Assembly: GCA_900128565.1 (NCBI GenBank)
Contig: LT635944.1
Location: 1-35,463, forward strand
DNA from: Stramenopiles sp. TOSAG23-6
Taxonomy: Eukaryota
DNA: 35,463 nt
Reading direction: 5' to 3'
The position numbers and the translations under genes are program-made. The notes under the pieces are model-generated. The model ran no database searches, was not told where the DNA came from, and saw nothing but the letters and a program-made list of their open reading frames with translations. Shown here piece by piece: positions 1 through 31,800 of this stretch; positions within the stretch are counted from its first letter, which is position 1, and the number at the start of each line of letters is the position of its first letter.

Positions 1-910
1 GAATCTCCAGCCGACGAACCACTTGTAATCAATAAAGATCCACTCGCGCCATTTTCTGAATTTGCTGTCTTAAAAGAAGCTTTGCCACTCTCAAATCTAC
101 CTACACCACTCGACATACTTAAATCGCCACCACGAGATTTTTCACCTGCACTATCTCCAGCGGCAATAGCAATCAATCCACCATTACTGGAGCTGCTTGA
201 TCCACCTGATAAAAGTATGTCACCACCAAATCCAATCGAAGATGACCCACTTTTTAATGTAACTGTTCCAGTAGAACCCACGGATGAAGTTCCACTGCCA
301 AGGTTAAGAGATCCACTCACACCTGTACTGGAATTTCCAGTAGTAATATCTATTGAACCACTAGAATCCGCAGAACCAGTACCAATGCGAACTTCTCCAC
401 TTGATTTTGCTCCATCTCCTGAAGATATTGACACATCGCCACCATTAAACCCCTCTGCAAGTGCCGTGCCACCTGAAATATTTAAATGTCCACCATCAGA
501 AGATGTACTAGCCCCAACCGCAATCGATATATTCCCGGGTTTACGTGCGTCTCCCGTAGCAATGGAAATTTCACCGGAATTTCCGCTAGCTGCAGAACCA
601 GTAAAAAGTGAGATAGATCCACTTTCAGAATCTTTTTTTGTGATACTAGATGAAGCAACAATTACTGATCCACTTGAATGAGTACCTTCACCACTCAACA
701 CACCGACACTTCCTCCTGTTGATTCTGAAGATTTTGTGCTACCAGCAGAAATACTAATAGATCCTCCAGAACCATTTTTAGTATTTCCGACAGCAATAGA
801 AATCCCTCCTGCAGTACTACCCGAACTGCTACCAGATGCAATGGTCACATTTCCAGAATCTCCAGCCGACGAACCACTTGTAANCAATAAAGATCCACTC
901 GCGCCATTTT
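1..910. repeat. Near-exact ~55 bp direct repeat (1-55 and 856-910), 855 bp apart, inside the giant CDS
   Basis: gaatctccagccgacgaaccacttgtaa(t/n)caataaagatccactcgcgccatttt at both places. Confidence 0.9.
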
Positions 911-12900: not shown

Positions 12901-15900
12901 GTAATAATTATTTGACCAGAATTTCCTTCACTAGACGTCCCTGTGTCTAATGTAATATTACCACTAGTCCCTGATTCTCCAGCATTAGAAGTGATCATCT
13001 TCATGTTACCAGAATCAAAAAAATCACTGTAACCAGACGATAACTTTACATCTCCACCTTTAACCCCACGGTCTTGGTTTTCATCTAAAGATCGCCCGGC
13101 AACAACTTTCACATCCCCCCCATTAAAAGTATCCCCTGTTCCAACACTAATGCTAATATCACCACCGGAACCTCCCTTTGCAGTACCTGTATTCACGGAA
13201 AACTTCCCAGAGGAGCCAGCAGATGATGTACCAGTCGTTATTAGAGCATTGCCAGACACGCCTTCTTCGCCTGCATTATCAGTTTGGAGGATCATATTTC
13301 CACTGTGGAAACCACGACTAAATCCTGTTTTCACAGTAACGGATCCCCCCAGAACGTCAGCAGTAGTCTGATCTTCCGTGAGACCTGCAGTGAAATGAAT
13401 ATCTCCACCATTTCCAAGTTGCCCTGTTCCAACTTGCACTTCAATATTACCACCATGTCCTTTTTTGGCACTACCAGTTTCCAAAACTATAGCACCCGAT
13501 TCAACTCCTGTAGCATCGCCTGTGTTTAGACGAACATCCCCTGAAACACCCTTTGCACCAGAGTCGGCAGTATGAAGAATGATATTGCCACTAGATGTTT
13601 GGGTTGATTTACCTGTAATAAGTTCTATCAATCCACCCGAAACTTTACCCGAGCCAAGTGTATCACCAGCCGTCATTTGTATCACCCCCCCAGATTTCGC
13701 CAAGCCAGTTCCTACTTTGACCAATACATCTCCTCCATGACCCGCGACAGAATCGCCGGTTTTTATAGCAAATTGTCCAGATCTGCCGTATTGGGCCGTA
13801 CCCGTTGTTACTTGTACGGATCCAGAGACACCAGCAGCAGCTGAATTAGCAGTCGATAGAAATATTTGACCAGATGAGGTTGTTGCGCTTGCACCAGAAA
13901 CGAGGCTAATTGACCCCCCTGATGATGTTGCAGCAATACCTGCAATCATAGATATATCACCACCTCTATCTCCAGCACCTTCCCCGTATGCTTTACCACC
14001 TGTGAATTCAATATCACCCCCCTTTCCCCCACTTTTCGAGTTTTTGGAGCGACCATCGCCTCCGGTAATTGAAACAATACCCCCTGCTTTACTATCATGC
14101 GTGGTGTTACCAGCATACAACAGGATATCTCCACCAGGCCCTGTGTTTCCATTGCCAACAGTAACCATGACAGAGCCACCTCTACCATTTATAGCCTCTC
14201 CCGTTGTTAGGTACATCGACCCCGAGTCTCCTGCCGTTGAATTACCGGTTGTGAAGAGCATTGCTCCTGATACACCTGCGTTTCCAGCATTGGGAGTATC
14301 AATGATGAAATTTCCACTCGAAGTGGGAGTACTTCTTCCTGTTTTCATAAGAATAAACCCACCAGACCCAGAATCTGTGGTATCGCCAGCATAGAAGAGT
14401 ATATCACCACCGGATTGTTTATTTCCTTCACCAACTTTGACTTCAAAACGACCACCATGACCCCCAGATGCATTCCCTGTGGTTAGAATGAAATTCCCCG
14501 ACGTACCTTTACTTGATGTACCTGTACCAAGTTCAATGTAGCCACTGACACCCGCCAAACCTGCATTAGGTGTATCCAATTTAATACTTCCTGATGTAGT
14601 GGCCAGACCTTGACCAGTACTCATAGTAATTTTACCGCCAGTTCCACCGGCAGAGTCACCACCAATTATTTCAATGTTACCTCCATTATCATCCAACTTT
14701 GTCCCAGAACCATTTCCACCACTGATAATAATGTCACCACCACCGCTATACCCCCCCGTACCTTTTCCAGACCCACCCGTTAGATATACTACACCTCCGC
14801 TATATCCTGATTTTGAAGATTTTATAGTCGAATCCCCAGCTTTGATATTCACGGGGCTTCCGTTGCCACCATTACCAGATCCAACCATAAGCTCAATATC
14901 ACCGGCGTATTCTTTTTTTGATGATCCGGTCACCATATGAATGAAACCAGTGGAGTTTGATTTCTTTACACTGGCATTTCCTGTCGTAAAATTCATATAC
15001 CCACTGTTGCCATTGGCTCCAGCTGCGGCAGTAATAAGTGTAATATCACCCGATGATGTTGATTCTGAGTATCCCGAAGTCAGTGTAATGTTTCCACCAC
15101 GACCTGATGCGGCATCTCCACCTGTTAAAAGTATATCCCCCCCTGTGTTATAATTGCTTAAACCTTTTGCTTCTCCGCCGATGACAACGACATTACCACC
15201 AGTACCTCCATTTGACGAACTTTTACTCGATCCTTCTCCAGCACTTATCTGAACTTCACCACCGGAAGAATCATCATCAGATGTTAGACCGGCGCTTAAT
15301 ACAACATTTCCTCCATTCCCAGTATTTCCATTTCCAACAAGCATATCTATATGCCCACCACGCCCACCTTCAGCATTGCCTGTGGTAATTTTGACAAGAC
15401 CCGAGTTTCCTTTTGTTGATTTTCCTGTGTGAAATTCTAAAACCCCGCTAACACCAGCTTTCCCAGCATTAGCAGTATTAACAATGAAGTCCCCAGAGGA
15501 CCGCATTTGACTATAACCAGTTACAAGATTTACACTACCCCCACTAATCTTTGCATTTGTTGTTGTTCCTGCTTCTACCAGTATTTTCCCTCCAATGCCA
15601 GTTGTACCTGATCCAACTTTAAGCGAAATACTTCCACCCTGACCTAATGTTGCAGTACCAGTAGTTACTGTAATATGACCACTTTTTCCAGATGTTGTTG
15701 TTCCGGTGCTAATATCTATCTGCCCGGATACACCAGATTGACCTGCATTTGCAGTCCATAATTCTACATGACCTGAGGAACTGGCAATTCCTGAACCACT
15801 ATGCATGATCAGGGACCCACCACTACCTTTGCGCGACCAACCACCTGTAAGCTCAAGGTTTCCTCCTCTATCTAATATAGGAGAACCACCCATGGCACGA

Positions 15901-18900
15901 CCCCCAGTAATAACAATAGCACCACCATCACCGCCATTAATATTCGACTCTGAGGATCCTTCACCACCAGTCATCACAATTTTACCACCACTCATATATG
16001 CAGCGGTTGAATTCCCTGCATTTACAATGACATCACCTCCATTGAAAGTGTCACCAGTACCAACATACATCTCAATATTACCACCTGCACCACCTTTGGC
16101 ATCCCCAGAACGAAAAGAAAAGGAACCAGAATTTCCGGCACTGGTAGTACCTGTATTCAGTAGTATACTTCCGGAAATTCCAGATTCACCAGCATTGGGA
16201 GTATTGAGGTATACATTTCCAGAAGAAGAAAATGAAGAGTATCCACTATCAAGATTTATATATCCTCCGGAAGCTCGGTATGTTGTGTCTCCTGCGGAGA
16301 GTTTTAGGTAACCACCTGAACCAAAATCACCTTCACCTACCTTAATATCTATATATCCACCATTACCCCCAGTAGAAACACCTGATTTAAGATCTAAATA
16401 ACCAGAATTTCCAGAACTTGAAGTACCCGAAGCCAGTGTAATTGAACCTGATACCCCCCTAGTTCCACCATTTGCTGTGTTCAGTACAAACCTACCAGAC
16501 GAGGTACCAACAGATTGTCCAGTAGAAAATAATATTGAGCCACCAAAGCCCATAAACGCAGAGCCACCTGTGATTTCTACATTCCCCCCGTTATCTTCTG
16601 ACGCAGCTCCCATCGCTTCACCACCTCGGATCTCAATCATACCCCCATTGCCACCATCATGACTATGTGCAGATGAACCTTCGCCAGCTAAAATAGACAC
16701 CTTACCACCTACTGCTGCATTAGCAGATGTGCGACCACCAAAAAAGAAAAGATCGCCACCATTTTTATAATCTCCATCACCAACAGCAATAGTGATGGTG
16801 CCTCCTGGGCCAGATGTAGTTTTTCCCGTTTGAAGAGTCATTGAACCAGAAGAACCCGCAGTTGAGGTTCCAGTATATAGTGACATATCACCGCTAGTTC
16901 CACTTTCTCCTGCATTACTTGTAGACAAATTTACCGAACCACTAGAGCGATCACGACTAGTTCCACTTCTTAGAACAACAGATCCTCCAACTCCACCGAT
17001 TGCAGCACCACCAACAACCTCTACATTTCCAGCACTATCACCGGCAAATTCACCTTTTGACTTACCACCGGTAAGTCGTACTACACCACCATTTCCACCG
17101 TCACCAGCGTCAGTATTTGTACCCTCACCAGCATTGATGAAAACAGCACCACCAACAGCAGATTTCGCGAGCGTTGCACCAGCGTTAAGGGACACATCTC
17201 CACCATCACCTGTATCGCCAACCCCAACCATGATATCAATCGAACCCCCTGATCCACCTCTAGCATATCCAGTTTCGAAAGTTATACCCCCAGATGAACC
17301 ACCGGAAGATGATCCTGTATTAAGGGCAATATCACCACTTACACCATAAACACCAGCATCCATCGACATAAGCATAATATTCCCGGATGATGTACTAGTT
17401 CCTTCACCTGAGCGTAATGTTAATGTTCCACCAGTTGCGGTTGCCGACTTTCCACCATCCATGGAAATGTCTCCACCAAAGCCAACCTCGGCCCCACCAC
17501 CCTGCAACATAATGTTACCCCCTTCACCGGCACCAGAATGCGAAGAAGAAGTTCCACCATGTAATTGTACTGTTCCACCACTACCAGCATATGAAGCATC
17601 AGAATCACCGCCATATAATTGGACTTTTCCTCCTGACTTGAAGTCATCTGTTGTCTTACCAGCATTGATAGAAACTTGTCCACCATCCCCACTATCACCA
17701 TCTCCAACGGCAAGCAAAATCTTACCCCCAGTACCACTTTTGGCAGTCCCGGTTGAGATGCTTAAAGCGCCTGATATACCACCAGATGATGTACCAGATC
17801 CAATGACCACCTTCCCCGAAACGCCTGATGTTCCAGCATTAACACTACTAATATGGACTTCTCCACTGGACGATACAGAACTTGCACCGGACTGAAGTTC
17901 TAACGAACCCCCCGTTCCAGATACGGCACTTGTGGAGCCTGCTTTAAATCTCACTGATGATCCCGTCTTGGTATTGCTAGATCCTCCACTAATTTCGATA
18001 GTACCGGCAGCCCCGTCTATAGCATTCCCTGACATTAGGGAAATATTACCAGTAGATCCTGATTTTGAATCACCAGTTACCATTGACAGAGATCCAGTAG
18101 AGCCAGATGTATCTGCTGGAGCAGAGCCTATTGCCACATCTCCAGATCTAATTCCTTGGGACGCACCTGACATCATTTTTAGCGAACCACCGTCACCATT
18201 CACCGCAGCGCCACCGGATACTATGACTGTACCACCTGTATCCAATGTACCAAGTCCTTTGCTGCCCCCCCCACTTATATTTATTTCCCCACCACTCCCT
18301 CCATTATCGTTATCTTCACTATTTCCATCACCACCAGTGATATTAATTTTACCACCTGTGCTACCAGATGCACTAGTATCTCCTGCACCGAGGGTTAGCA
18401 TGCCCCCAAGATGGCCTGACATACTGGTTCCTACTTTGAGATCAATACCCCCAGCAGTTCCCGCGGATGTACCTGTTTTAAGCGATATAGCACCTGAGGT
18501 ACCCTCAGTCGATGTACCAGTCCAAAGGGAAACATCACCACTGGAACCTTGGGTACCACCATTTGACGAGCTTACCTGGATTTCACCAGAATGTTTACTA
18601 TCGGAGCTACCTGATTTTACAGATACATTGCCACCTGAATGACTTGGACTTGAGGTTGCTCCAGCAGAAATTTTGATTTCACCACCTTGAACAGCATTCC
18701 CGGACCCGACTTTTACACTGATGTTGCCACCATGCCCACCAGCGGATTCACCTGTTGTTAAAAAGAGAGATCCTGTATCACCTGCTGAGGATGCACCTGA
18801 TGCAATAGACACGTCACCACTACTACCACTACTACCAGCTTTTGCAGACATAATATTGACATCACCACTAGAGGAAAGTTCAGAAATTCCACTAACAAGC

Positions 18901-19775
18901 AGAATACGCCCTCCACTCATTGTGGCGGCAGTTCCCCCTTGGATTTTCACGGTGCCTCCATTACCTTCAGCTGAATCACCACCTTGAAGAAGTATCTCAC
19001 CACCAGCCTGACCAAGAGATCCAGTTTCAAAAGCAGCTTCACCATGTGCAGCACCACCAAAAAGATATATACTTCCACCCCCACCGCCATTTGCGGCAAG
19101 TCCATCACCAGCTGAAATATTCACAGATCCGCCCAAAGTGTTGACTTCATTCCGATCGCCAGCAGTCAACTTAATATCGGCTGCAGATTGCAATTTAAAT
19201 TGTGTATCATCTAAAATCATTTCAAAGCGGCGCCCACCTGATGCAGGCCCGGATACTTGAAAGTGTCCGCCTCCAAATACAGGGTCTTCTTCTACGATAA
19301 GGTTACCAACTACACGATTGATCCCAACGAAAGATGCAGGGCACGGCATATCGAAGACAGTGCCCCGACAATTTGTACTGAAAACATCAGCAACAGTCAT
19401 ACACTTATTCTCCGAAGCACACCAAGCACACTCATGTTTGTCGGCACAGCTCCCGCAAGTTTGGAATTCATGGCAAACTGGCATTACCGGGCACTCTTCC
19501 TCCAGGGAAACCCAACTGGGGCACGGAGACCCATCTTGGGGACCTATTGAATCTCCATCCATGCAAGTTAGTGTGGAAAGACAGTATCCACACCCCTGTG
19601 TACGAACACAACCTCCACAAACCTTTACTTCATCCCAATAAGGTCCATCTATACCATCATCGAAAGAAGCACATGTCTGTGCAGTGACTGAAGTTAAGAA
19701 AAACAGTGATATGAAAGAAGTTAAAACTATCATTATAAATTGTGTTTTAAGGCTAGCCCTTTTACTAAATACCAT
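3..19775 (-). CDS. Giant (>=6591 aa, 3'-truncated by window) predicted secreted Gly/Ser/Thr-rich repeat protein with N-terminal PSI-like domains and an internal peptidase S74 (intramolecular chaperone) domain
   Basis: ATG at 19775-19773 gives MVFSKRASLKTQFIMIVLTSFISLFFLTSVTA-QTCASF. The same frame (codon starts = 2 mod 3) holds at the S74 motif (4412) and at the left edge (...GASGSLLITSGSSAGD). All Pro-rich plus-strand shadow ORFs from 82 to 19318 lie in one register, so there is no frameshift. The ORF track lists no stop-terminated minus ORF in this frame. Confidence 0.93.
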   Translation of the reverse strand, partial: MVFSKRASLKTQFIMIVLTSFISLFFLTSVTAQTCASFDDGIDGPYWDEVKVCGGCVRTQGCGYCLSTLTCMDGDSIGPQDGSPCPSWVSLEEECPVMPVCHEFQTCGSCADKHECAWCASENKCMTVADVFSTNCRGTVFDMPCPASFVGINRVVGNLIVEEDPVFGGGHFQVSGPASGGRRFEMILDDTQFKLQSAADIKLTAGDRNEVNTLGGSVNISAGDGLAANGGGGGSIYLFGGAAHGEAAFETGSLGQAGGEILLQGGDSAEGNGGTVKIQGGTAATMSGGRILLVSGISELSSSGDVNIMSAKAGSSGSSGDVSIASGASSAGDTGSLFLTTGESAGGHGGNISVKVGSGNAVQGGEIKISAGATSSPSHSGGNVSVKSGSSDSKHSGEIQVSSSNGGTQGSSGDVSLWTGTSTEGTSGAISLKTGTSAGTAGGIDLKVGTSMSGHLGGMLTLGAGDTSASGSTGGKINITGGDGNSEDNDNGGSGGEINISGGGSKGLGTLDTGGTVIVSGGAAVNGDGGSLKMMSGASQGIRSGDVAIGSAPADTSGSTGSLSMVTGDSKSGSTGNISLMSGNAIDGAAGTIEISGGSSNTKTGSSVRFKAGSTSAVSGTGGSLELQSGASSVSSSGEVHISSVNAGTSGVSGKVVIGSGTSSGGISGALSISTGTAKSGTGGKILLAVGDGDSGDGGQVSINAGKTTDDFKSGGKVQLYGGDSDASYAGSGGTVQLHGGTSSSHSGAGEGGNIMLQGGGAEVGFGGDISMDGGKSATATGGTLTLRSGEGTSTSSGNIMLMSMDAGVYGVSGDIALNTGSSSGGSSGGITFETGYARGGSGGSIDIMVGVGDTGDGGDVSLNAGATLAKSAVGGAVFINAGEGTNTDAGDGGNGGVVRLTGGKSKGEFAGDSAGNVEVVGGAAIGGVGGSVVLRSGTSRDRSSGSVNLSTSNAGESGTSGDMSLYTGTSTAGSSGSMTLQTGKTTSGPGGTITIAVGDGDYKNGGDLFFFGGRTSANAAVGGKVSILAGEGSSAHSHDGGNGGMIEIRGGEAMGAASEDNGGNVEITGGSAFMGFGGSILFSTGQSVGTSSGRFVLNTANGGTRGVSGSITLASGTSSSGNSGYLDLKSGVSTGGNGGYIDIKVGEGDFGSGGYLKLSAGDTTYRASGGYINLDSGYSSFSSSGNVYLNTPNAGESGISGSILLNTGTTSAGNSGSFSFRSGDAKGGAGGNIEMYVGTGDTFNGGDVIVNAGNSTAAYMSGGKIVMTGGEGSSESNINGGDGGAIVITGGRAMGGSPILDRGGNLELTGGWSRKGSGGSLIMHSGSGIASSSGHVELWTANAGQSGVSGQIDISTGTTTSGKSGHITVTTGTATLGQGGSISLKVGSGTTGIGGKILVEAGTTTNAKISGGSVNLVTGYSQMRSSGDFIVNTANAGKAGVSGVLEFHTGKSTKGNSGLVKITTGNAEGGRGGHIDMLVGNGNTGNGGNVVLSAGLTSDDDSSGGEVQISAGEGSSKSSSNGGTGGNVVVIGGEAKGLSNYNTGGDILLTGGDAASGRGGNITLTSGYSESTSSGDITLITAAAGANGNSGYMNFTTGNASVKKSNSTGFIHMVTGSSKKEYAGDIELMVGSGNGGNGSPVNIKAGDSTIKSSKSGYSGGVVYLTGGSGKGTGGYSGGGDIIISGGNGSGTKLDDNGGNIEIIGGDSAGGTGGKITMSTGQGLATTSGSIKLDTPNAGLAGVSGYIELGTGTSSKGTSGNFILTTGNASGGHGGRFEVKVGEGNKQSGGDILFYAGDTTDSGSGGFILMKTGRSTPTSSGNFIIDTPNAGNAGVSGAMLFTTGNSTAGDSGSMYLTTGEAINGRGGSVMVTVGNGNTGPGGDILLYAGNTTHDSKAGGIVSITGGDGRSKNSKSGGKGGDIEFTGGKAYGEGAGDRGGDISMIAGIAATSSGGSISLVSGASATTSSGQIFLSTANSAAAGVSGSVQVTTGTAQYGRSGQFAIKTGDSVAGHGGDVLVKVGTGLAKSGGVIQMTAGDTLGSGKVSGGLIELITGKSTQTSSGNIILHTADSGAKGVSGDVRLNTGDATGVESGAIVLETGSAKKGHGGNIEVQVGTGQLGNGGDIHFTAGLTEDQTTADVLGGSVTVKTGFSRGFHSGNMILQTDNAGEEGVSGNALITTGTSSAGSSGKFSVNTGTAKGGSGGDISISVGTGDTFNGGDVKVVAGRSLDENQDRGVKGGDVKLSSGYSDFFDSGNMKMITSNAGESGTSGNITLDTGTSSEGNSGQIIITTGASTGGSGGDFKVLVGMGNSGPGGDIIMTAGEAQTLLSGGSGGHIKMSSGFGKHTSSGMIHIASVDAGVSGVSGAIQISSGKSTRGNSGQITVASGKAVGGSGGNINIISGIGDSGVGGNIRLRAGDIITGSFSGGSISVESGHSERTSSGNIEIFTSNSGINGVSGEIYVKTGTASRGTSGSILLATGDSDKGSGGGIDILVGSGARGNGGAIKILAGNTSDERGGHINIATGFSQETSSGHLDIRSMNAGIEGISGNVTLETGTASFGRTGMIKLSTGDSEAGSSGLILLQTGGSTQGQGGAISLQVGKSGVGKGGNVAIEAGGTIAGSLSTGGSILFSSGNSQFTSSGRIALQTDSAGSKGVSGAISLDTGKSTRGNSGNITMITGGAPKLEKDGVSNGRRGAVALDAGDIYLTANYDDKATIELSSTFVSMEAKNGFDLGSSSLTEPGDSGNVNVFTGNTTDGDTGDLKIWTGTATGGNAGDIEVTVGEGDTGTGGNIELIAGKTTAESTQATGGLIHIESGKSLLSSSGNIHIMSQNAGVSGVSGKIEISTGTTSDGTSGEISLITGLSSVGSSGSVFIGTGNDIDASKSTMKSGNIYVSSGTSNTGNSGYLAISTGAATSGQGGSLSMVVGSGTVGEGGSINMQAGDTSDGFGGGSVSLKTGMSAQTSSGSLYVSTSKGGTEGNTGLIDVRTGTSSSGSSGDIVVRTGNAINGAGGDIKLEVGQGNSGVGGSIFIEAGNTTSTGKTGGDVSITTGKSLSPLKGSSGTLLIATSDAISDGSTGSASIKTGLATAGNSGNLDISTGKAEFVGAAGAINIIVGEGSSANGGHITLKAGLTSAASGSGGAISVSTGKVTGDKSTSGELLLETATATRVSSGSGSITVHTGAANTGSSGSILLKSGAASGSSAGDIEVVAGESSSLPDDNSGGRIVITAGAESKGSGGSIFIKSGFGSTTSSGNIVLASENAGSQGVSGSIALSTGVATKGDSGEISIRTGNTESGRGGKINILVGKGDTVVGGRVSVNAGDSSDESGGSVNIQSGKGTATSSGNINISTPDAGNTGVSGAISVSTGSATDGNSGELDIRTGSATKGSGGSISLVSGKGVGGDGGHVSLTGGDSSNANGGGILLKTGISKEESSGSVLLTSANAGKNGVSGAIEISSGTASEENGNTGFVSLKTGDSEKGRAGGIRLEVGDSSNGIGGVINMMAGNVSSVSDSTGGKIFIMSGSSTQTSSGQISVVTADAGTSGISGNIAFSTGDATAGSSGEIQISTGTSNGGNSGNIQMSVGSSDTGVGGDININAGTALETASTGSGGKVEIKTGAGIATSSGNFNLGTSNAGISGVSGGVAISTGTSSSGTTGEIRIQTGKATGGSGGGIKIMVGEGDGGAGGAIKIEAGVTHHGHSVGGVGGATRIRSGQGLGEDAISGSVSITTANSGKVGHSGPLLLASGTTHHGNSGNVILQSGTATVGQAGYVQIKVGDGTVGEGGHVGVQAGDVLGTSGIVGTGGNVDIKSGFSVGTSSGNINIGTAKAGVSGVSGSIGISTGVSANGGSGEIRISTGDSTGGSGGVIKLSVGSASKSVGGNIKFTAGEATNSKADSTGGSVIVSSGTSATKASGKIHISTASAGKAANGMSGLLALSTGASMAGESGGISLKTGNSVGRGGGSISINVGTSDLSDASEKATGGDIVLKAGDVSPSEGDGGKLLITSGFSKTSSGDIDMFTANAGTEGTSGNMSLRTGTSSAGASGSFILSTGSAKKGAGNIRIASGSTENKAASGGDIAVEAGNVTGKGSGGKISLVTGKGDSTSSGMFGVSTADGGITGSSGAIVVSSGNAAVANSGSISFETGQSLGGSAGDIFLRVGSSSEGASGNLFFTAGNTTADATSKSGGIVDIVSGYSSLTSSGDIRLLTANSGEAGVSGTLLLATGTSNASTSGGIALTSGRAITGRGGDIVLNVGNGVGKGGNIEIIAGKTLGETQSGGKINLISGLSENGSSGNIVISTPNSGKESISGGILVKTGTSSTGSSGEISVTTSSSKTGPSGSIKLNVGESESAKGGDFVISSGDATADSATGGMVRMVTGGSTGEEGKTGDFSLKTENAKNTGTSGAVTIGTGNTADGNSGGIQFQTGTSKGGTGGGISIVVGSGDTVNGGQVKIKSGVSKSGLGGDIALSSGSVATNEIAKSSGNIKIDTSPGTISGQIKLSTGSSTLGNTGSISLLTGAAVLGSAGGIEIGVGKSSVAKGGSINIIAGSTKSDQVNGGKIIINSGSASSLSTTSAKSGSIVVKTADSVLTGGIKLNTGTSSTGSTGSVSISTGASLGGASGNIEITVGTGNTGPGGKIVMSAGKTTIAEIGDGGLVSLSSGSGGVSSGSIDLATPDSATSGKISLKTGSGSTGTSGSISVNTGDAATIGNSGDLSISTGTINTGEGASGSIKLKAGSGTGGSGGAVSLTAGSSGTGNGAEISVVAGSGAANGGKIDMISGRGGKSSGVISIISADSTLSGAISIGTGKASTGNSGNVNISTGSAVGGEGGGISMNVGSGDAADGGSVKISSGSTTAADSLGGSVEISTGTGMARSGFLKIASAATDIGNSGDIQLITGGTKEGSSGDILVGTGTSNSAGGGSISIIVGESGQGDGKTVEISGGKTSAEDKVGGGINIASGIGTKASGDITIKTVDSLGGRSGDLKVSTGDAKTVAGSLNLKAGNSVASAGGSVILQPGGGTDKYSGGSVLLKDASGTSRVAINPDGAIDASSATGQDITIDTGFDAIVNLKDKDAEFVIKHELASGGDEGTSVFRVWKDKVLAHVPVQASTILQPSDKRIKRDIEDSDNNDVLQRLNQIEMKQYRYTEDWAKVRNLKPDDVGVGRPVRGFIAQQVYEIFPEYIHITDNFTLPDKGFHREKFFEVNKIKLSVDLLSAIQEQQSRLTIGANTPDESGGVTINTADAGSYMGGNSKGRSGRIQIRTGAGVGDESGSISIATGHSKNSQAGSINVNIGSSEKEDGGDIVMRAGATKGSGIGGLVLLESGSSSTASSGDIQFKSSEGKTGNSGDITFVTGNSDNGNSGNMVFVAGSAGKDGGSVKIQAGEGGVSGGHVELLSGGSVGGISGDTEIATAKSSLNSGSLSLSTGDSEQSSGKVSISSGDSVSAGSVYLQSGDSEEISGSDVQIHAGSGGHVGGAVTLHSGGGASRSGYVTVKSAATDRGDSGALEIGTGDSSEGGATGRIFIKSGHSENSDSGDITLGSGDASEGNAGSTNFIGGASGEGLGGSISFSAGETSSSVGGSITVQSGVSENGPSGEIAIETASVNRGHGTSGKLLLRSGDTQSTTSGSVYIGSGDTQNHVVGDVLVGVGSTNSGVPSASLKLTATDALLVAGSSVSSSGGRVVLRSGSSTGTSSGDVILSTADTEGVGVSGSIVVASGSSELDPSGDIFLKSGDSESSSSGGLSLRTGNAEGGAGGSIAVAAGSGTTGAGGSVAIVGGETREDGGVGGSIRITSGKSIHKGESGNSVVTTGMSAEGNSGSTVISTGASDAGNSGTVSVRSGDAVRGNSGAILVSSGKSGTGNGGLVRLAGGSTTAKDGIGGGIHLLSGQGQSSSGSVEVASGDLHQYGKSGDLTFSSGAVTHGVSGNVQISSGDAATAGHVSIEVGNSSSGTGGSFSISGGKSFTGRGGNVFVRSGSSESNSSGDIYISTPMSKSTKASSGSISVSSGSSKNGSSGAVNIASGDANNASSGIVSIKSGSAKGGTGGNVIMSVGSGDKGKGGNITLAAGESTSRKSHGGSLSLSSGKGVDASGNIVVQTHKTLSSENNADASGIITMSTGNAENESGGILISSGVSKESSAGDIAIAGGMGSYSGGNVFLTAGGSLAADGEGGDIQMLSGYGSKKSGTIILSSSNSTDTSGALSLHSGDSKNGQSGNVTVSTGDGKSAGTIHFDVGESKFGKGGDILLAAGISEDLIGGSLFFKSGDGDVASGGISFLSSDTKNGASGSLLXTSGSSAGDSGNVTIASGSSSGSTAGGISIAVGNTKNGSGGSISISAGSTKSSESTGGSVGVLSGEGTHSSGSVIVASSSITKKDSESGSISLFTGSAASGNSGEISIATGDARKPGNISIAVGASTSSDGGHLNISGGTALAEGFNGGDVSISSGDGAKSSGEVRIGTGSADSSGSIDITTGNSSTGVSGSLNLGSGTSSVGSTGTVTLKSGSSSIGFGGDILLSGGSSSSSNGGLIAIAAGDSAGEKSRGGDLSMSSGVGRFESGKASFKTANSENGASGSLLITSGSSAGD
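4086..4412 (-). other. Peptidase S74 / intramolecular chaperone auto-processing (ICA) domain within the giant protein
   Basis: SDKRIKRDIEDSDNNDVLQRLNQIEMKQYRYTEDWAKVRNL...RGFIAQQVYEIFPEYI...FFEVNKIKLSVDLLSAIQEQQSRL. Contains the SDxRxK Ser/Lys dyad (Ser codon 4412-4410, residue 5122; Lys 4397-4395), the GxIAQxVxxxxP motif and a terminal AIQE helix. Confidence 0.9.
19341..19673 (-). other. Two tandem PSI (plexin-semaphorin-integrin)-like Cys-rich domains
   Basis: 16 Cys in two blocks of 8: C...CGGCVRTQGCGYCLSTLTC...CPSWVSLEEECP and CHEFQTCGSCADKHECAWCASENKC...C...CP. This matches the C-CxxC-CxWC-C-C-CP PSI pattern. Confidence 0.75.
19680..19775 (-). other. Predicted signal peptide of the giant protein (32 aa)
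   Basis: Basic n-region (KR..K), hydrophobic core FIMIVLTSFISLFFL, small-residue cleavage motif VTA|Q. Confidence 0.8.
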
Positions 19776-20284
19776 GTTCAATGGAATTATTCGTGAGCTC
19801 GCGTTATTCTCTAAGCTGCAAACACTAAAAAGATGCAACAGTGCTTTATCTGAGTCCCTGGATAATTTCTTGGAATGAATAAAATTGCACACAATGGGAC
19901 AACAGCTGTATGTAAGAGTTGTACGCGGATCCTTTTCACAGTTACAAAGGGATACCGTCTTTTTGGTCGTACGAAATTTTATACCTAATCTAGGATCTTT
20001 GTTTTACGTTGGAAATTGAATTTACTTTCTAAATTTCTTGGTTTTTCGTGATAAAATTGCTAAACCGACATTTTCCAGTACCGGGTAATCAACTTCGAAT
20101 TTTTTTTTTGCTTGCCAGACAAAGAAAAAGAAAAAGAGAAGAGAACTCGAAAATTTAATCAACTTTTGAACTGCTACATGCATAGATGCATGTTACCATT
20201 TTCGAGTTTCAAGTTTTAATTGAAAATCAATAACCCGGATGAGGTAATCGAACTTTTTCTAGTTGATACTTTTGTGGAGGCGCA

Positions 20285-22376
20285 ATGTCGCTCGATCATT
20301 CTGAGAGTAATGGCATCACACTCAAAGTTGTTTCAGTTTTTATTATGCTTATATTGGGAGTCTATGTTTGTTATCTTGTAAAGAGATATGCTAGGGCAGA
20401 TACACCCACATTGGTTCTTTTTATTGTATGGGTTTCTTGGTTCCTCTCGTTATGTGGTTCTTTGATGCTTCCGATAGATATTGCGATAACATTGACAGAA
20501 CGTAATACATCTGCTGGTATCCTTGTATTGTGGGAAATTAACTATTGGGCAACTTTTATACTTGCTTGGGTGGTTGGACCCTTACTGATGGAGTTTGGCG
20601 CATCAGGACACTTTGAAACAAAGCTGAAGTTTATTTCGGCCGTGAAGTCTAATGGCAAGTGCTATATGTATGGTTTGATTGCTCTTGTTTTTATTTTTTT
20701 TGCTGTTGTGATGGTGGATGGTTTCACAAACCCTTTATCTATTTTAATGGCTGCTGGGAATGTCTACGGTATTCTGCTTGTAGTAGTTCTCACTTCGTAT
20801 GGTTTATTCAACGTCCCTCGTAATTTGTGGCATTCAGCAAATCCAGAATTAGAGCTCAAGAAGTTAGAATTTATGGCTCCTCAAAAAGAAACTGAAGTTT
20901 GGGAATCAAAACGAGATGTAGAATGTGTTATGAGAGAAGTGTGGGCAGTAGATTATTGTTTGCGAGAAGAATCTAACACACTGGACAACCCGTTGCTTAC
21001 ACAATATCTTCAACAGATTTTAGACAAGTGTAGCCTTTCTAGTTTTAATTTTACTGGAATTCCAGAAGAAGTTTGGTCTCCATCGACTAGTAGGAAGCAT
21101 AAAGTGGATAAAATGGCAAGCATTCACCGAAGACTTCGATCTGCTTTAGCTGTAAAGGGACGTGCTCTTGCTGAGTGGGACTTTTTGATGAATCGTGTGT
21201 TAGAGTTAGAAGATTTGTTAAATGTAGCTGCAATGCCTTCTGGAACTAATGCTGTTGCTGCTACTGGTGATAGCACAATTAAGTTACAACTTTTTGCTTG
21301 GAGGTGGTACTGGAAGGTACACATTGCTCCTTGTGCAAATCGAGTGTTTGCAGTTTTATTCGGTTGTTTATCACTTGTAGTTTTGTGGTGCGAAGTGTCA
21401 ATGCCGCTACAAATGGGACTTTCTCCATTTGGTTTTCTTGTGCGACATTCGGATCAGTCACAATTTTTTTGTGCTTTGGCAGTTGCAATTCCTCTTTGGT
21501 ACATTACCTTCTGTTGCTATTCTTCATTAGCTGCTGTATTAAAGGTTTTCTCAAATTTGACACAACGGGGTTGCTGCACGATGGATGCATATGATATTTA
21601 TGATGGCCAGCATGTATGTTTTATTTTTTTCAAATTCGAATTTATTTTTCGTACGAAATGTTATACCTAACATTTTTTTTTAGATTTTTTTTGAAATATT
21701 TTTCCAAAATACATACTGATCCTTATGCATTGCTGTTTAACGCTGGTTATATTTGTCGAATGCAATTTTCTCTTAATGCTAACTTTCTTGCCATTCTACA
21801 ATACAATGAAAGCGCCTTTAAAAATGTAGTAGGACAAATGTATGTTTTATTTTTTTTTAAATTCCAATTTATGTTTTTTTTTCGTACGAAATTTTGTACC
21901 TAACGAATTTTTTTTGAAATATTTTTCCAAAATACATGGAAGTTGGCGTACTTGGAAAAAATGTCCCGCTTATTTTCCCAGCTGCGATGGTTTTTATTGT
22001 TTTAATGCTTTATTACGAAATGTACGAAAAAATTCTGCGCTGTTTTGGGATTGACATCGCCTTTTTGGGTGATGTTAATGTCGAAAACCTTGGACCAGAG
22101 CATGAAGACCAAATTATGGAGGGACGAGGGCTCATTAGAAATGATCGTAGAGTCATTAGAAATGATCGTAGAAGATTTGGCGACTCGAAAAGAGTAGGTC
22201 CTTCGAGCAATTACAGGTCAGAAACGAAGTCAAGGTTCAAATCTACACGCAGAAGCGGCAATGAAACACTCGAAAATTCAGTGAATTCTATTGAAGTTGG
22301 TGATCTCGCGGTTGATATAGATCATACGAAAATGCCTCTTTGGTTAATTGATAGTAATAGTAGTAGTTCAGATTAA
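20285..22376 (+). CDS. LMBR1-family multi-pass membrane protein (LMBRD2-like), 3 exons: 20285-21613, 21715-21839, 21938-22376 (~630 aa)
   Basis: Multiple TM helices with LPIDI, LWxINYW and GLxxVPRxLW motifs. The joined exons give the family-like QHTDPYALLFNAGYICRMQFSLNANFL and GQMEVGVLGKNVPLIFP...ILRCFG. Joined length 1893 nt = 631 codons including stop. Confidence 0.8.
21614..21714 (+). mobile_element. Introner-like intron 1 (101 nt, GT...AT; element GTATGT...AAAATAC plus duplicated AT)
   Basis: cagcAT|gtatgtttt...tcgtacgaaatgttatacctaac...ttgaaatatttttccaaaatac AT|actgat. Removal restores QH-TDPY. Confidence 0.75.
21840..21937 (+). mobile_element. Introner-like intron 2 (98 nt, GT...AT)
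   Basis: caaAT|gtatgtttt...tcgtacgaaattttgtacctaac...ttgaaatatttttccaaaatac AT|ggaa. Removal restores GQ-M-EVG. Clearly homologous to intron 1. Confidence 0.75.
22132..22172 (+). repeat. 21-bp in-frame tandem duplication (IRNDRR x2) in the LMBR1-family C-tail
   Basis: tcattagaaatgatcgtaga repeated twice. Confidence 0.85.
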
Positions 22377-22418
22377 TTAGGGTTAATTGATAGTAATAGT
22401 AGTAGTTCAGATTAATTA
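22342..22418 (+). repeat. 39-bp tandem duplication spanning the stop codon of the LMBR1-family gene
   Basis: ggttaattgatagtaatagtagtagttcagattaatta occurs at 22342 and again at 22381. Confidence 0.9.
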
Positions 22419-22579
22419 ATTAGGGTTGATGTAGGATACTTTTATAATTTTAGTTACATTTGATTTGCTTTTTTTTTTTTTTGCGATAGAATTCTTAAAT
22501 ATTAAGAGAAGTTATTTTGGATTTATTTCTTAGTAAATCCCTCCGATGCAGACACAAGGAAGTTGTATTGCGACATTAA

Positions 22580-22672
22580 ATTTATTTAGGATTTGAGATT
22601 TATTATCTGTTAAACCTTTTTTTAGGGTTAGGGTTAAGTCGGATTTTGTTCAATCTCAAATCTGAAATAAAT
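22580..22672. repeat. 21-bp inverted repeat (19/21 matches) enclosing TTAGGG repeats
   Basis: atttatttaggatttgagatt (22580-22600) pairs with aatctcaaatctgaaataaat (22652-22672). The loop contains tttagggttagggtta (22621-22636). Confidence 0.7.
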
Positions 22673-22793
22673 CAAATCTGAAATTTTTTTTTTAAAATTC
22701 AAAAAAAAATTGAAACACACGACACTGTTGTCGTCAGAAGATCTTGAAAATTTTGAGAGATTTGGATAGCATTATTAGACTAGAATAACATAT

Positions 22794-23870
22794 ATGTCTT
22801 ATCGTGGACAAGGAGAGTATGGCAACCCCGTAAGAGATGTAGTAGGCTATGGTGCCAACCCACCAAATCCAAGGTGGCCGAATAACGCAAAGGTTGCGTT
22901 ACAAATAGTTGTGAATTACGAAGAAGGTGGTGAACACTGTTTGTTACATGGAGATGGAAAATCTGAGTGGTTATTGAGTGAAATTGTGGGCGCTAAACCA
23001 TATCCCGGACAGCGTCATATAAATATAGAGACTCTGTACAATTATGGATCACGCGCTGGTTTCTGGCGCATTTTTAGAATACTAAAGGAACGAAATCTTC
23101 GTGCGACTGTTTATGCTGTTGGCATGGCTCTGGAGCGCAACCCTGCTGCTGGTCGGGCAATGGTTGATGCGGACTGGGAAGTTGCATCTCATGGTTACAG
23201 ATGGATTGATTATCAAAATGTGGACCAGAAAACTGAACGAGAGCATATTCGAAAAACAGTTGAAATTCATCACCGAGTGCTTGGCCAAAGAGTTTTAGGG
23301 CTTGTATGTTTACAGCATCAATTTTAAATTTATTTATTTTTCATACGAANTTTGTANCTNACNAAAAAAAANTTNAAAATNTTTNCCAAAATACTTTACC
23401 AAGGTAAACCTAACAAAAATACTCGTAAGTTGTGTGTTGAAGAAGGCGGGTTTTTATATGACTCTGATGCATATGACGATGATCTTCCGTATTGGAATAC
23501 GGAGTATGGACGCCCACATTTGGTTATTCCGTATACACTAAGTGAAAATGACATGAAGTTTGTTTCACCGGGTGGTTTTAATAATGGAAGTGACTTTTTT
23601 GGATACTTAAAAGACAACCTGGATTTTCTCATTGCAGAAGGACGCTCTGGTCGTCCTGTTATGATGACTGTAGGTTTGCATGGCAGAGTTGTTGGTAGAC
23701 CAGGGCGTGCAGCTGCTTTAGCTAAATTTTTAGATTATGCAATGTCTTTTGATAAAGATGTTTGGATATGCCGTAGGGATGAAATAGCAAGACACTGGTA
23801 TCGCTATCACTGGCCAGAAGGATATGGTAAAGCTCCACCTTACGCAACAGGTGTATTTAGTAAACTATGA
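22794..23870 (+). CDS. puuE: PuuE-type allantoinase (polysaccharide deacetylase / CE4 fold), 2 exons: 22794-23303 and 23397-23870 (~327 aa)
   Basis: RDVVGYG, WPNNAKVALQIVVNYEEGGE, ETLYNYGSRAGFWRI, MALERNP, WEVASHGYRWIDY, GGFLYDSDAYDDDLPYW, HLVIPYTL..NDMKF, MMTVGLHGRVVGRPGR and DVWICRRDEIARHW are PuuE-family motifs. Confidence 0.9.
23304..23396 (+). mobile_element. Introner-like intron 3 (93 nt, GT...TT) in puuE
   Basis: gggcTT|gtatgttt...tcatacgaantttgtanctnac...ccaaaatac TT|taccaa. Contains an in-frame TAA (23325-23327). Removal restores GL-YQGKPNKNTRKL. Confidence 0.75.
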
Positions 23871-23967: not shown

Positions 23968-24876
23968 CTATGCTTCATATACGTCCTTCCTCCTTTGATA
24001 GCCAATTGGGATATTTTTACGAATGGTATCCACAATATCTAAGTCAATATCGGCAATAATTATATCTGCAACTTCGGCAATTTCATCGCCCCCAGCTACT
24101 ACTTTACCCCAAGGATCTACAAGCAGAGAATGTCCCCATGCTTGATAACCACCAGTTGAATTTCGTGCAGGGGAGACTCCAGCAACATATACTTGATTAT
24201 CAACAGCACGGGCTCGCATCAAAAGTTCCCAGTGAAGTGGACCCGTAGTTACATTAAAAGCTGCAGGGAAAAGTAACATTTCACATCCTTCATCTCTCAT
24301 ACGCATTGATAGCTCCGCAAATCTTACATCATAGCAAATTGCAAGTCCCATTTTGCACCAAGGAGTATCAAAAGTAGTGAAGCAGTTACCAGCTGATAAT
24401 GTATCCGACTCTTTAAAGTATTGCCCTCCTGGGATATCGATGTCAAATAAATGAACTTTTCGATGCTTTGCGACTAAAAGACCATTTGGGTCAAAAGCTA
24501 CACTAGTGTTAAATACTTGGTTGTTCGAGTCTATTTCTGGGTAAGAACCACCAAGCAACCAAACTTTATTCTCCTTAGCAGCATCTGAGAGAAATTTTGT
24601 CGTGGGGTTTGCTTTAATATCAATTGAGTCTTTAGCGTTGATGTTTGGTATTTTCTCTGCGTATTTTCGGAATTGGGTAGTGTCGTAAGGACTATTGAAG
24701 CACTCTGGGAGTGCAACGAATTCAGCACCGCCTGCTACTGCAGCATCGATGGCTCTGCGAGCTTTCTGAAGATTTGATGATTTATCCGGTGAGCCACAAT
24801 CCAACTGACAAAGCGCTAGCTTAAACTTCCGTTTTGCACTTGAAGTAGAAAGAGGTATTGCTCTTTGGCATGCCAT
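23968..24876 (-). CDS. NIT2: Omega-amidase NIT2-like (nitrilase / CN-hydrolase family), 302 aa
   Basis: Glu-Lys-Cys triad motifs LPECFNSPY, KHRKVHLFDIDIPG and ICYDVRF, plus AFNVTTGPLHWELLMRARAVDNQVYV and YQAWGHS, typical of NIT2/Nit3. Confidence 0.9.
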   Translation of the reverse strand: MACQRAIPLSTSSAKRKFKLALCQLDCGSPDKSSNLQKARRAIDAAVAGGAEFVALPECFNSPYDTTQFRKYAEKIPNINAKDSIDIKANPTTKFLSDAAKENKVWLLGGSYPEIDSNNQVFNTSVAFDPNGLLVAKHRKVHLFDIDIPGGQYFKESDTLSAGNCFTTFDTPWCKMGLAICYDVRFAELSMRMRDEGCEMLLFPAAFNVTTGPLHWELLMRARAVDNQVYVAGVSPARNSTGGYQAWGHSLLVDPWGKVVAGGDEIAEVADIIIADIDLDIVDTIRKNIPIGYQRRKDVYEA

Positions 24877-28854: not shown

Positions 28855-31800
28855 ATGCCGATCCTGTTGCAATCGACTGGCAATAGATCCGTATTGCCAT
28901 CGATTGCTAAACCACAGAATAAAACAGAAATTACTCGGAGAAAACGTGATGTCGGCAAACTTCCGATTATTCCAATTAGTGGCACTTCTGATACCTCAAA
29001 TTCGTCTTCAAAGAGTAAAATAGTTTACAATCGTCGCACTGCTGCTAATTATCATCATCACAAAAAGCTCATAAAAAGACAATACCAAATACTAGAAAAA
29101 ATGGTGAGACAGCACCAGCGAGATGAAATGACACGCCAAGTTGAAATGTCAGCTTGTAATAGTACTGCCCAACAAACTGTCCTTCGAATTCGTTTTGAAT
29201 CTGAACGTCAGAGTGAAAAAAGTGAAATTCGGCGTTTATTGAAGCATTTGAAAAGAGCTAAATCTCAATTAATCGATAAAACTGCTTATATTGATTCCGC
29301 GGTAAAAGAGACAAGTATAAAAAAGAAAATTAATATAGAAAAAAAAACAAAGAAAAATAGAGCAAAATCAAAATCAAAGTTACTAGTAGAAAATACATCT
29401 AATAGAGATGCAGATGATGTTAGTACTGAAGCAGCCATTGCAGCTATGGAAATGTCTGTTCGGCGGTTGGCAATAGAGCGCGCTTCTGTCGATGATAGCA
29501 TTAGCGGAGATAAGGACAAGTTTCTTGATAAAATGTTAGAGGACTATTTAAAAGAATATAATGATGCAATTCCAAGTAGATTAAATGTACTTTATTTGTT
29601 TATAAAAAAGAGAACACCAGACATAAAGATATCATTTAAAGATATTGAAGAAACAATCACTCGTTATAGTTCAAAGCAAGAAAATGCCACTCGCGCTCAT
29701 CAATTTAAATACCCTAGAATAGTAAAACAAAACAAAATTGAATCAAGTTTGAAAAAATCTTCACACAAAACAATAGAACGGAAGGAAAGTATAAATAAGA
29801 TGAAATACAAAGTAACACAAGCTCGAAAAGAAAAGTATTCTAGCAGTGATGAGACCGATGATGGTGGGTACTATGATGACTTTGCAGTATCTACTAGAAA
29901 AGAAGATAGTGATGACTGGAATAGAACTACCGGGGGCATTACTCACCAAAATCGTAATTCGTTAGGTACAAAGTTTGGTACGGATTCAAATTCGAATTTG
30001 CCAAGTGTTGCCCCACTGAATAGAAATATAGAGCAAAGTAAACATAAAAATCGAGGAAGAAACAATGATTCAGGTAAAAATGCTAAAATAACATTAGCGA
30101 AAAACACAAAGCGTGGTGTAGCACAGAGAGGTAAACAAAATAGAAAACAAAGACAATCAAGAGATCTAAGGCGGGTAAAACGCCGAGAAAGGAAAACACA
30201 ACAATATATGTCAAATCCATATGGCACCAAGAAGAAAAAAAAATACCAGAGTTTTAACATGAAAAAAACAATTCGTTCTCAATTTCGGGCACAAATAAAT
30301 GAGATGTGGTTTCGGATACCTAAAGCACAACGTACTTTGTGGAATAATAATTGGAGACGTGAAAAAAAGATGATCAGAGTTTACCATACAGCTGCATATG
30401 CAATTTCAAAAGCCAGGGCAAATGCCGCGAACATGACAGAGGATGATAAAGAGGAGATGATTCGAAGAATAGACAACTTACTTATCGAGGCAGAGTCTGG
30501 ATCGATTAAACCTGATAATTTCAATGAAAATGACGCGAAAGTCAAAATAGATGATGTATGGTCTGGAGAAACCAACGAAGGAACCAAAACTGCCTTTGAA
30601 GACCAAGATATAAACACAAAACAGGAAAGTATTTCTCAGGAAGATTTCATTGAAAGGGAGACTCTTATAAAGCTTGAGAAACTAAAAGATGCTTTTGAAT
30701 CTGAAGCACTCACAGAAGAACAATTCTTCCAGTTTAAAGAAAGTGTAGTTGAAGCGTCAGAAAAGGCCAAAGCAACTCTCGCGGCAAATTTAGAAGCTCG
30801 GAAACTTGAATTAGAAATGGCGGAGAAAGTTCGAATTGCTGAATTAGAGATGGCCGAAGATATAAAAAAAACAAAGGTGAAGCTAAATAAATTAAGACAA
30901 GCACATAAAGTGGGGGCTTTGACGCGTTCACAATATAATGATTTAAAAAATGGAATTGAAACAAATACTGGTATTCACTTGATGAGTGATTCCGAAGCTA
31001 ATATCGACTCAAATCGTCAATCTCATTACGTTTCACTTAAGGCTTCAAATATATCTCAAGTAGATGGAAGTAATCAAAGTAGTTACAAAAACGCCCCCCC
31101 TCCAGACACTAGCACAATTGATCAAGGAGAAAGTCATCTATCTAATACAAAATCTCCAACCAATGCTATTTCAAAAGAGGAAACACTTAAGTTACAAAAG
31201 CTAGAAATGTTGAAAATCAACGAACGAGCAAAACAACATTTATCCCGCCTGAGAAAGTTTGTTTTCAGAAAGCAAATTAGACCAGGTACTTTATTCCGAT
31301 ATATGCAGTCAAGTTTCTCTGCGGTTAGTATACATATTTCATTTATAGGATTTCTTCGAGGATTGGAAAGAATTGCTTTCCGGAATTTATCAAAGAATGA
31401 TGCAACGCATGTTTTTAGATTGATATCAAAAGGGCGCGCACAGTTCAGTATACGGGATCTTCTCAGAGCACTCGCTGCCCGTGACGGAGAAGAAGGATAT
31501 GATAGGAAGGAACTAGAAAAAACAACAAAATGGGAACAAAAATACAGCATGAGTAGTGCTGATATTGCACGTGAAAAAAAACAAGCAGTTTTAGACACAA
31601 TGAGACTCAAAATAGAGCTCAAAAGACTGAAAATTCGAATCGAGGTTTTTTTTGAACAAATGGACAAGAATATGAGTGGGAACATTAGTTTTATGGAGTT
31701 TGTCCGCGGGATGGAAAGTGTAAATATATCGTTATCTAGGCGTGCTGCTCGACAAGTCTTCAAAATTCTAAGTCCTGATGGTGTTTGTACCCTACAAAAC

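Follow-up and report, generated by a model that had tools for sequence, protein, structure and literature searches.

Can an intron be carried into a gene by a repeated element and still be removed precisely when its 3' end bears no AG? The question is posed by a locus of Stramenopiles sp. TOSAG23-6 (assembly GCA_900128565.1, contig LT635944.1), of which positions 1 to 35,463 of the forward strand, 35,463 nucleotides in all, were analysed and are referred to here as the window. Two neighbouring plus-strand genes of the window, encoding an LMBR1-like membrane protein and a PuuE-type deacetylase, are interrupted by two insertions and by one, respectively; a preliminary description, made from the sequence alone, had proposed that the insertions are non-canonical introns of a single mobile family. 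Our analysis leads us to regard it as likely that the three are spliceosomal introns with a 3' splice site other than AG, and that they belong to a single introner-like family which a marine stramenopile carries in very many copies.

Anatomy of the insertions and the proteins they interrupt

The exons and introns proposed for the two genes are as follows.

20285..21613, plus strand: LMBR1-like exon 1, 443 codons; Pfam PF04791, E 1.6e-68
21614..21714, plus strand: intron 1, 101 nt, phase 0; element 21614-21712, repeated AT 21713-21714; TACCTAAC at 21664-21671; nhmmer E 3e-18
21715..21839, plus strand: LMBR1-like exon 2, 125 nt; spliced model aligned with 13 homologs
21840..21937, plus strand: intron 2, 98 nt, phase 2; element 21840-21935, repeated AT 21936-21937; TACCTAAC at 21897-21904; nhmmer E 1.5e-17
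21938..22376, plus strand: LMBR1-like exon 3, to the TAA stop; RNA contigs over 21990-22335
22794..23303, plus strand: PuuE-type allantoinase / polysaccharide deacetylase exon 1, 170 codons; Pfam PF01522; PDB 1z7a E 1e-57, 3cl6 E 4e-54
23304..23396, plus strand: intron 3, 93 nt including 8 N, phase 0; element 23304-23394, repeated TT 23395-23396; TANCTNAC at 23355-23362; nhmmer E 9.5e-13
23397..23870, plus strand: PuuE-type exon 2, 157 codons and stop; PDB 1z7a E 5e-51, 3cl6 E 4e-50, from residue 164

The insertions lie where the preliminary description had placed them and carry the motifs it had named. Each opens with GTATGT (at 21614, 21840 and 23304), followed by a T-rich stretch of variable sequence. 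A core follows in which TCGTACGAA (TCATACGAA in the third copy) precedes TACCTAAC (TANCTNAC in the third); the conserved core overall reads TTTCGTACGAAATNTTRTACCTAAC, after which a second T-rich stretch leads to the end GAAATATTTTTCCAAAATAC. At the 3' boundary, which is without AG, CCAAAATAC is followed by AT, AT and TT, respectively, and in all three copies the same dinucleotide stands immediately before GTATGT. The termini GTAT and ATAC are reverse complements of each other, a 4-nt inverted repeat that is likewise present in 3/3 copies, as the preliminary description had reported for both features. All three copies are T-rich (GC 18%) and lie in sense orientation in their host genes, with signals placed as in introns; the predicted branch A stands 44, 34 and 35 nt from the end of introns 1, 2 and 3. 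A TAG at 21681-21683 inside intron 1 is private to that copy.

The kinship of the three copies, also claimed at the outset, is borne out by several measures. A profile built from them with nhmmer recovers each (E 3e-18 to 9.5e-13, of the order of 1e-18 to 1e-12), copies 1 and 2 being 89% identical and copy 3 matching the others at 72-73%. The pattern GTATGT N40-70 TACCTAAC occurs twice in the window and in none of 100 shuffles. Compared with what defines a U2-type intron, the 5' site conforms to GTRNGT in 3/3 copies (a 2-nt shift of register would put AT or TT first), and a CTRAY branch signal with a pyrimidine-rich tract is present, by sequence, as TACCTAAC, TACCTAAC and TANCTNAC; the 3' AG is absent, the ends being AT, AT and TT (AC in the other register). 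A scan of the whole window against Rfam returned no family, so that the conserved core does not correspond to any RNA described there.

Exact removal of the insertions was claimed to restore conserved protein, and this holds in both genes. Exon 1 of the PuuE-type gene covers residues 6-162 of PDB 1z7a, with its last residue at 163, and exon 2 begins at 164 (1z7a, 3cl6); with the 93 nt removed the exons abut at residues 162/163 and 164 of 1z7a / 3cl6. Joining 23303 to 23397 yields G-L-Y-Q-G-K, in a position where G-[IF]-Y-Q-G is found in 7/7 aligned homologs (chosen from 120 listed). Removal of 101 and 98 nt from the LMBR1-like gene leaves a single frame of 631 residues with one terminal stop, and its product is colinear at both junctions with the protein P0123, the best of 1216 matches in an exhaustive HMMER search. 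A word-index search for LMBR1 relatives had given no match before this; 13 homologs out of 150 listed were aligned, and in one of them, P0127, a separate long insertion adjoins junction 1. For intron 1, removal at 21613/21715 is predicted solely from such homology.

With respect to possible AG acceptors, the preliminary description stood in part. With GTATGT as donor, the nearest AG past the branch signal does lead to a stop in intron 1 and to loss of frame in introns 2 and 3 (103 and 100 nt). Open, in-frame GT/GC..AG alternatives nevertheless exist near each of the three: for intron 1, GC21610..AG21683 adds 9 residues and is free of stops; for intron 3, GT23308..AG23403 removes one residue and turns Y-Q-G into V-C; and other choices for introns 2 and 3 lengthen the protein by 4-17 residues, shorten it by 9-26 or put intron-encoded residues in the place of 15. 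The non-AG sites are therefore the best-fitting solution and not the sole one with an open frame.

These options give substance to the view, assumed by the public annotation, that the insertions are ordinary introns with canonical GT/GC..AG borders a few bases away. The public PuuE model (P0273) equals the window DNA minus the GT..AG stretches 22908-22967 and 23308-23403 (plus strand), and the public hydrolase model (P0003) equals it minus 24551-24498 (minus strand), in both cases letter for letter, which implies that the annotation of this same sequence was forced into canonical introns. The agreement of GT23308..AG23403 with P0273 speaks for canonical borders; against them, that stretch overlaps the true 93-nt element and replaces the YQG of 7/7 homologs by VC. 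The same models also contain two further introns, which remove 20 residues from the PuuE-type protein and 18 from the hydrolase, the 20 being kept in 7/7 aligned PuuE homologs. Introns that delete residues in this way render those public models unreliable; the stretches 22908-22967 and 24498-24551 are probably false introns, and 23308-23403 is probably a displaced version of a real one.

Environmental RNA and DNA across the locus

Parts of the stretch are contained in 20 public sequencing runs, 11 of which are recorded as RNA. Four were aligned to positions 19900-23349, the right edge being limited by the N in intron 3: X3, seawater DNA from another study; X8, a poly(A) metatranscriptome; and X6 and X7, which are also poly(A) RNA. 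Contig 27 of X8 (151 nt) joins 21792-21837 to 21936-22040 with 0 mismatches and no letters in between, skipping 98 nt, and given the 2-nt ambiguity of register at the repeated AT this is the very junction, 21839/21938, that the preliminary description had predicted. Because the join is 21837/21936, the nearest AG (21941-21942) is not used for intron 2. A second X8 contig, number 31, runs along 23125-23303 without a mismatch and then diverges from the genome for 53 further letters. A match that ends at 23303 is what the GTATGT donor would give; a donor at 23308 would have extended it to at least 23307 and is thereby contradicted. Of the predicted junction 23303/23397, then, RNA supplies the exon end on the donor side, and the acceptor at 23396/23397 is placed by homology.

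Canonical borders are thus opposed by RNA at intron 2, where the join falls at no AG, and at intron 3, where the match stops too early, and taking the three insertions together we consider them unlikely. The idea survives only for intron 1, which none of the RNA contigs listed for X6, X7 and X8 crosses; positions 21460-21790 are without RNA cover, and the RNA is hence uninformative there.

A different objection is that the insertions are polymorphic for presence and absence: that they are miniature inverted-repeat transposable elements (MITEs) which recently disrupted genes of the sequenced cell, the apparently spliced RNA deriving from strains with empty sites. The RNA (X8) and the DNA (X3 and the window) do come from different samples, and in an abundant family with some very similar copies recent movement is plausible. 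The independent seawater DNA, however, contains the elements at 3/3 sites, X3 contigs passing from exon into element at each (contig 1 to 21630, contig 6 from 21917 and contig 8 to 23346), and contig 27 agrees with the window at every one of its 151 nt. All three copies are moreover in sense, with the 5' splice site and branch signal positioned as in introns. The host genes point the same way: of nine coding differences between the window and the environmental contigs, eight are synonymous changes at third positions and one replaces Ala by Val (P = 0.001 for at least 8/9 at third positions). Eight of the nine fall in LMBR1-like exon 1 (7/8 synonymous) and one in the PuuE-type gene. Such a pattern indicates that the host genes are under purifying selection and argues against pseudogenes, and we hold the polymorphism explanation to be very improbable.

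In the environmental data the family proves to be highly repeated. On these 3450 bases 6155 contigs of X3 were placed, and the summed depth reached 28,723 and 125,532 in bins of the element 3' half, as against 5.6-19.5 in 25 element-free bins; in seawater DNA and RNA alike the depth of the 3' half exceeds that of the flanks by a factor of 100 to 10,000, though it sums all organisms of a sample and does not translate into copies per genome. The two RNA runs X6 and X7 show an excess of element over exon comparable to that in DNA. Loose ends in X3 start at 21612 in 21 contigs, and 8 of the 12 listed element pieces extend to at least 21937, so that numerous environmental copies align through AT on both sides, which suggests either that AT is a preferred target or that the AT belongs to the element. 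Apparent joints in X3 between 21714-21717 and 21834-21876 were set aside as contigs from other copies of the repeat, with no bearing on the locus.

The same DNA bears on the notion that the elements are eliminated from DNA, in the manner of the internal eliminated sequences of ciliates, and that the expressed genome lacks them. Short elements with 2-nt flanks, lost precisely together with one copy of the repeat, would suit such a process. The elements are present in bulk seawater DNA, however; their flanks are AT or TT and not of TA type; the standard genetic code fits an open reading frame (ORF) of 6630 codons elsewhere in the window; and the splice signals would be left unexplained. The best protein matches also point to stramenopiles. 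In source names, the closest are GSMAST32.ASY1.ANO1.816.1 for the neighbouring CN-hydrolase and.815.1 for the PuuE-type protein, a label that we take to denote the assembly of a marine stramenopile of the MAST-3 group; next come further stramenopiles, labyrinthulids and oomycetes among them, together with many unnamed sequences. We know of no division into germline and soma in stramenopiles, a point on which no literature search was made. An origin of ciliate type was rejected, and DNA-level elimination in general strikes us as extremely improbable.

Recognition of the 3' end

GTATGT and CTAAC are the signals read by U1/U6 and by U2 in intron-poor eukaryotes, and their presence together with a T-rich tract makes it the most economical assumption that the spliceosome recognizes the 5' site and the branch in the ordinary way. 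Each copy brings its own yeast-type 5' site GTATGT, branch signal TACCTAAC and T-rich tract, and under the spliceosomal reading the transcript loses the element along with one copy of the 2-nt flanking repeat, the 3' cut falling two bases past CCAAAATAC on a dinucleotide that depends on the flank (AT, AT, TT). The copies would have been dispersed by insertions of a non-autonomous DNA element, each duplicating 2 bp, and the duplicated dinucleotide would occupy the position where other introners recruit AG. The place of the 3' cut would be fixed by the spliceosome with respect either to where the element ends (CCAAAATAC + 2) or to the branch site, and not by reading AG. If GTATGT is the donor the introns run GT..AT, GT..AT and GT..TT, and the RNA equally allows AT..AC, AT..AC and TT..AC; the exact register of the cuts, the transposon origin and the mechanism of 3'-site choice are what we infer.

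Two standard classes of intron offer a first comparison. The yeast-type U2 consensus is GTATGT ... TACTAAC ... YAG, and the present introns resemble it in their intron-poor setting, in the conserved GTATGT and in a CTAAC signal 34-44 nt from the 3' end; they differ in having no YAG, in an extra C in the branch box (TACCTAAC) and in being copies of one repeat. U12-type introns have the 5' consensus RTATCCTT and the branch TCCTTRAY about 10-26 nt from the 3' end. Two of the three copies can be read as AT..AC, as in the AT-AC introns of that class; the third would be TT..AC, however, and both motifs are wrong, the 5' end reading GTATGTTT or ATGTATGT and not RTATCCTT, with the branch box 34-44 nt away. 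A U12-type identity was rejected.

Excision might also be non-spliceosomal or guided by structure, with paired ends defining the cuts, as has been proposed for the nonconventional introns of euglenids and for Amoebophrya's hairpin introners. Those systems share with the present one non-canonical borders next to direct repeats; the repeated AT extends the ends to a 6-bp palindrome, ATGTAT/ATACAT; and GTATGTTT can pair with AAAATAC if one G is bulged. Yet the third copy, flanked by TT, forfeits the extra pairs, and the predicted folds of introns taken alone are no stabler than those of shuffled sequences (z = -1.66 and +0.22), with four end pairs. The inverted repeat has 4 nt, as against 8-20 nt in Amoebophrya, and the conserved GTATGT and CTAAC are the classic targets of U1/U6 and U2. 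With only 4 (to 6) complementary nucleotides and such folds, a hairpin introner of the Amoebophrya type was discarded, and structure-guided excision as a whole seems to us unlikely.

Several observations weigh against the spliceosomal, non-AG reading that we prefer. RNA bridges one junction only, that of intron 2, in one contig at a depth of 2.2 and from a sample other than that of the DNA. Contig 31 is read as far as 23303, and homology supplies the acceptor of intron 3; intron 1 is without RNA support and has, in GC21610..AG21683, an in-frame option whose AG lies 13 nt past the branch A. The case for transposition from terminal inverted repeats and target-site duplications is weak, since the former are 4 nt long, the latter 2 nt, and the flanked copies number three; in 2/3 copies the upstream C matches as well, and a 3-nt repeat is equally possible. 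The element excess in X6 and X7, being similar to that in DNA, implies that many copies may stay in RNA or that the libraries contain DNA; in poly(A) RNA it could reflect retained introns, stable excised introns or library DNA. Pieces of the core finally occur outside introns, where a simple model leaves them unexplained.

Among the closest described systems are the introners of Micromonas pusilla and Aureococcus anophagefferens and the introner-like elements of Polarella and Symbiodinium, characterized in parts of PMC11282704 and bioRxiv 10.1101/2020.10.14.339549 as short, non-coding, many-copy makers of introns. According to the same portions of these two sources, the element gives one splice site and the duplicated target the other, always as AG; those of Polarella and Symbiodinium enter many frames and retain G[TCA]..AG (sections of bioRxiv 10.1101/2020.10.14.339549). 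The present family is likewise short, of many copies and flanked by short direct repeats. In contrast to the AG ends and GT, GC or GA starts of those elements, however, the duplicated dinucleotide here is AT or TT, with no AG; their target-site duplications measure 3-8 nt as against a flanking repeat of 2 (perhaps 3) nt here, and the inverted repeat here has 4 nt only.

Another such system is Amoebophrya, whose strains A25 and A120 contain repeated non-canonical introns with inverted repeats of 8-20 nt that form hairpins and direct repeats of 3-5 nt; within the portion of PMC7789003 drawn on here, these introners have no fixed terminal dinucleotides and a U1 small nuclear RNA was not detected. 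Common to both are a marine protist as host, repeated non-GT/AG introns, direct repeats across the exon/intron boundary and a need for RNA in gene prediction. Unlike Amoebophrya, the present family has a canonical 5' site and branch signal and no stable hairpin, and only its 3' end is deviant. In the animal Fritillaria borealis, as parts of PMC11282704 and bioRxiv 10.1101/2025.08.15.670264 relate, MITE-derived introns are removed by a U2-type spliceosome and have the non-AG 3' ends AC and AT, mostly as AG..AC and AG..AT; a TAC motif in the exon serves as the 3' site and an altered U2AF is implicated. A non-AG 3' end and, if our reading holds, a transposon origin and removal by a U2-type spliceosome are shared, whereas the Fritillaria introns mostly start with AG and the present ones start with GTATGT and have a conserved internal core. 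Full-text literature searches, and passages of PMC5778133, PMC8163842, PMC12614181 and PMC12130899, turned up nothing on MAST-3 or Nanomonadea introns that are repeated or non-canonical, supplementary intron statistics lying outside that scope.

For bursts of intron gain the favoured explanation is transposon-like introners, and spliceosomes that accept other than GT/AG are known from very few lineages (Amoebophrya, Fritillaria and euglenids), a list that a heterotrophic marine stramenopile would now join. The departure here is confined to the 3' rule, since the 5' site and branch are yeast-like, and recognition of the 3' site would in this way be separated from the rest of the splicing code. 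A wider proposal is that the spliceosome of a MAST-3-type lineage ignores AG altogether, that it measures off the cut from the branch site or from where CCAAAATAC ends and so tolerates any 2-bp target duplication, and that most introns of an otherwise intron-poor genome are copies of this family; we advance it tentatively and with some doubt. If AG does go unread, the lineage would offer a natural system in which 3' recognition alone has been rewired (U2AF1, Slu7/Prp18 and the step-2 pocket of Prp8). Introner surveys of the kind represented by PMC12130899 work from annotated introns, and a family like this one would probably escape them. The public models at this locus, forced into GT..AG, damage conserved residues, and protein sets from such single-cell assemblies may hold systematic errors.

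Further copies and the surroundings of the locus

Element-like sequence occurs elsewhere in the window in more divergent or fragmentary form.

19908..20027, plus strand: possible diverged fourth copy; GTATGT at 19908, core TCGTACGAAATTTTATACCTAAT at 19967-19989, end AATTTAC+TT near 20025-20027; partial nhmmer match, E 0.0024
29953..30000, minus strand: internal element fragment (CAAATTCGAATTT ... TTTGTACCTAACGAATT); nhmmer E 0.0026, exact 12-mer match, element ends absent

The first, aligned with the three copies, falls within the 393 nt that separate two divergent genes, upstream of the LMBR1-like one; judged by its sequence, it may be an intron of the 5' untranslated region. The second is antisense within an uninterrupted EF-hand ORF of 1246 residues, and its origin is unexplained; another short core piece is found at 32053-32083, and the two fragments in the EF-hand ORF, both antisense and without the element ends, match the core exactly over a 17-mer and a 13-mer. 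The sequence TCGTACGA occurs four times in the window, where 0.16 occurrences are expected.

Scans for further copies in wider collections gave none: four loci in metagenome contigs were not the element (no GTATGT start, not T-rich, 3/4 with a GC content of 0.52), viral contigs gave 0 loci, and genome contigs gave one (L005), which is cyanobacterial by Pfam. L005 is a contig of a cyanobacterial metagenome-assembled genome with ORFs that include PAM68, RimM, S15 and DAHP synthase, and its positions 4994-5021, between divergent genes, match the intergenic core copy over 28 nt at 93%, 6 nt beyond the searched pattern. Given the size of the scan, the match is probably due to chance, odd though it is.

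In its ORF layout the window has the character of a gene-dense, intron-poor eukaryote. Most other genes are uninterrupted ORFs spaced by 100-800 nt, and the absence of ordinary GT-AG introns from the coding sequences of the window, noted in the preliminary description, fits these long unbroken frames, the RNA being confined to 19900-23349. GC content is about 45% in a giant gene and 33-40% elsewhere. That gene, at 3-19892 on the minus strand, forms one reading frame, over 6630 codons long and still open at the window edge; it consists of degenerate repeats in which units of the type G-G-x-I/V are frequent, has one PSI (plexin repeat) domain near its N-terminal part and shows a strong GC skew.

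Other repeats are of a local kind. At 22334-22425 (plus strand) the 3' end of the LMBR1-like gene, stop codon included, is duplicated in tandem over about 45 nt, and TTAGGG-like repeats (TTAGGGTTAGGGTTAAG) lie in the intergenic region near 22620. The minus-strand EF-hand gene at 32704-35463 contains internal tandem repeats of 96 nt, in 6 copies at most 98% identical (32762-33456), and of 84 nt, in 2 copies (35263-35430).

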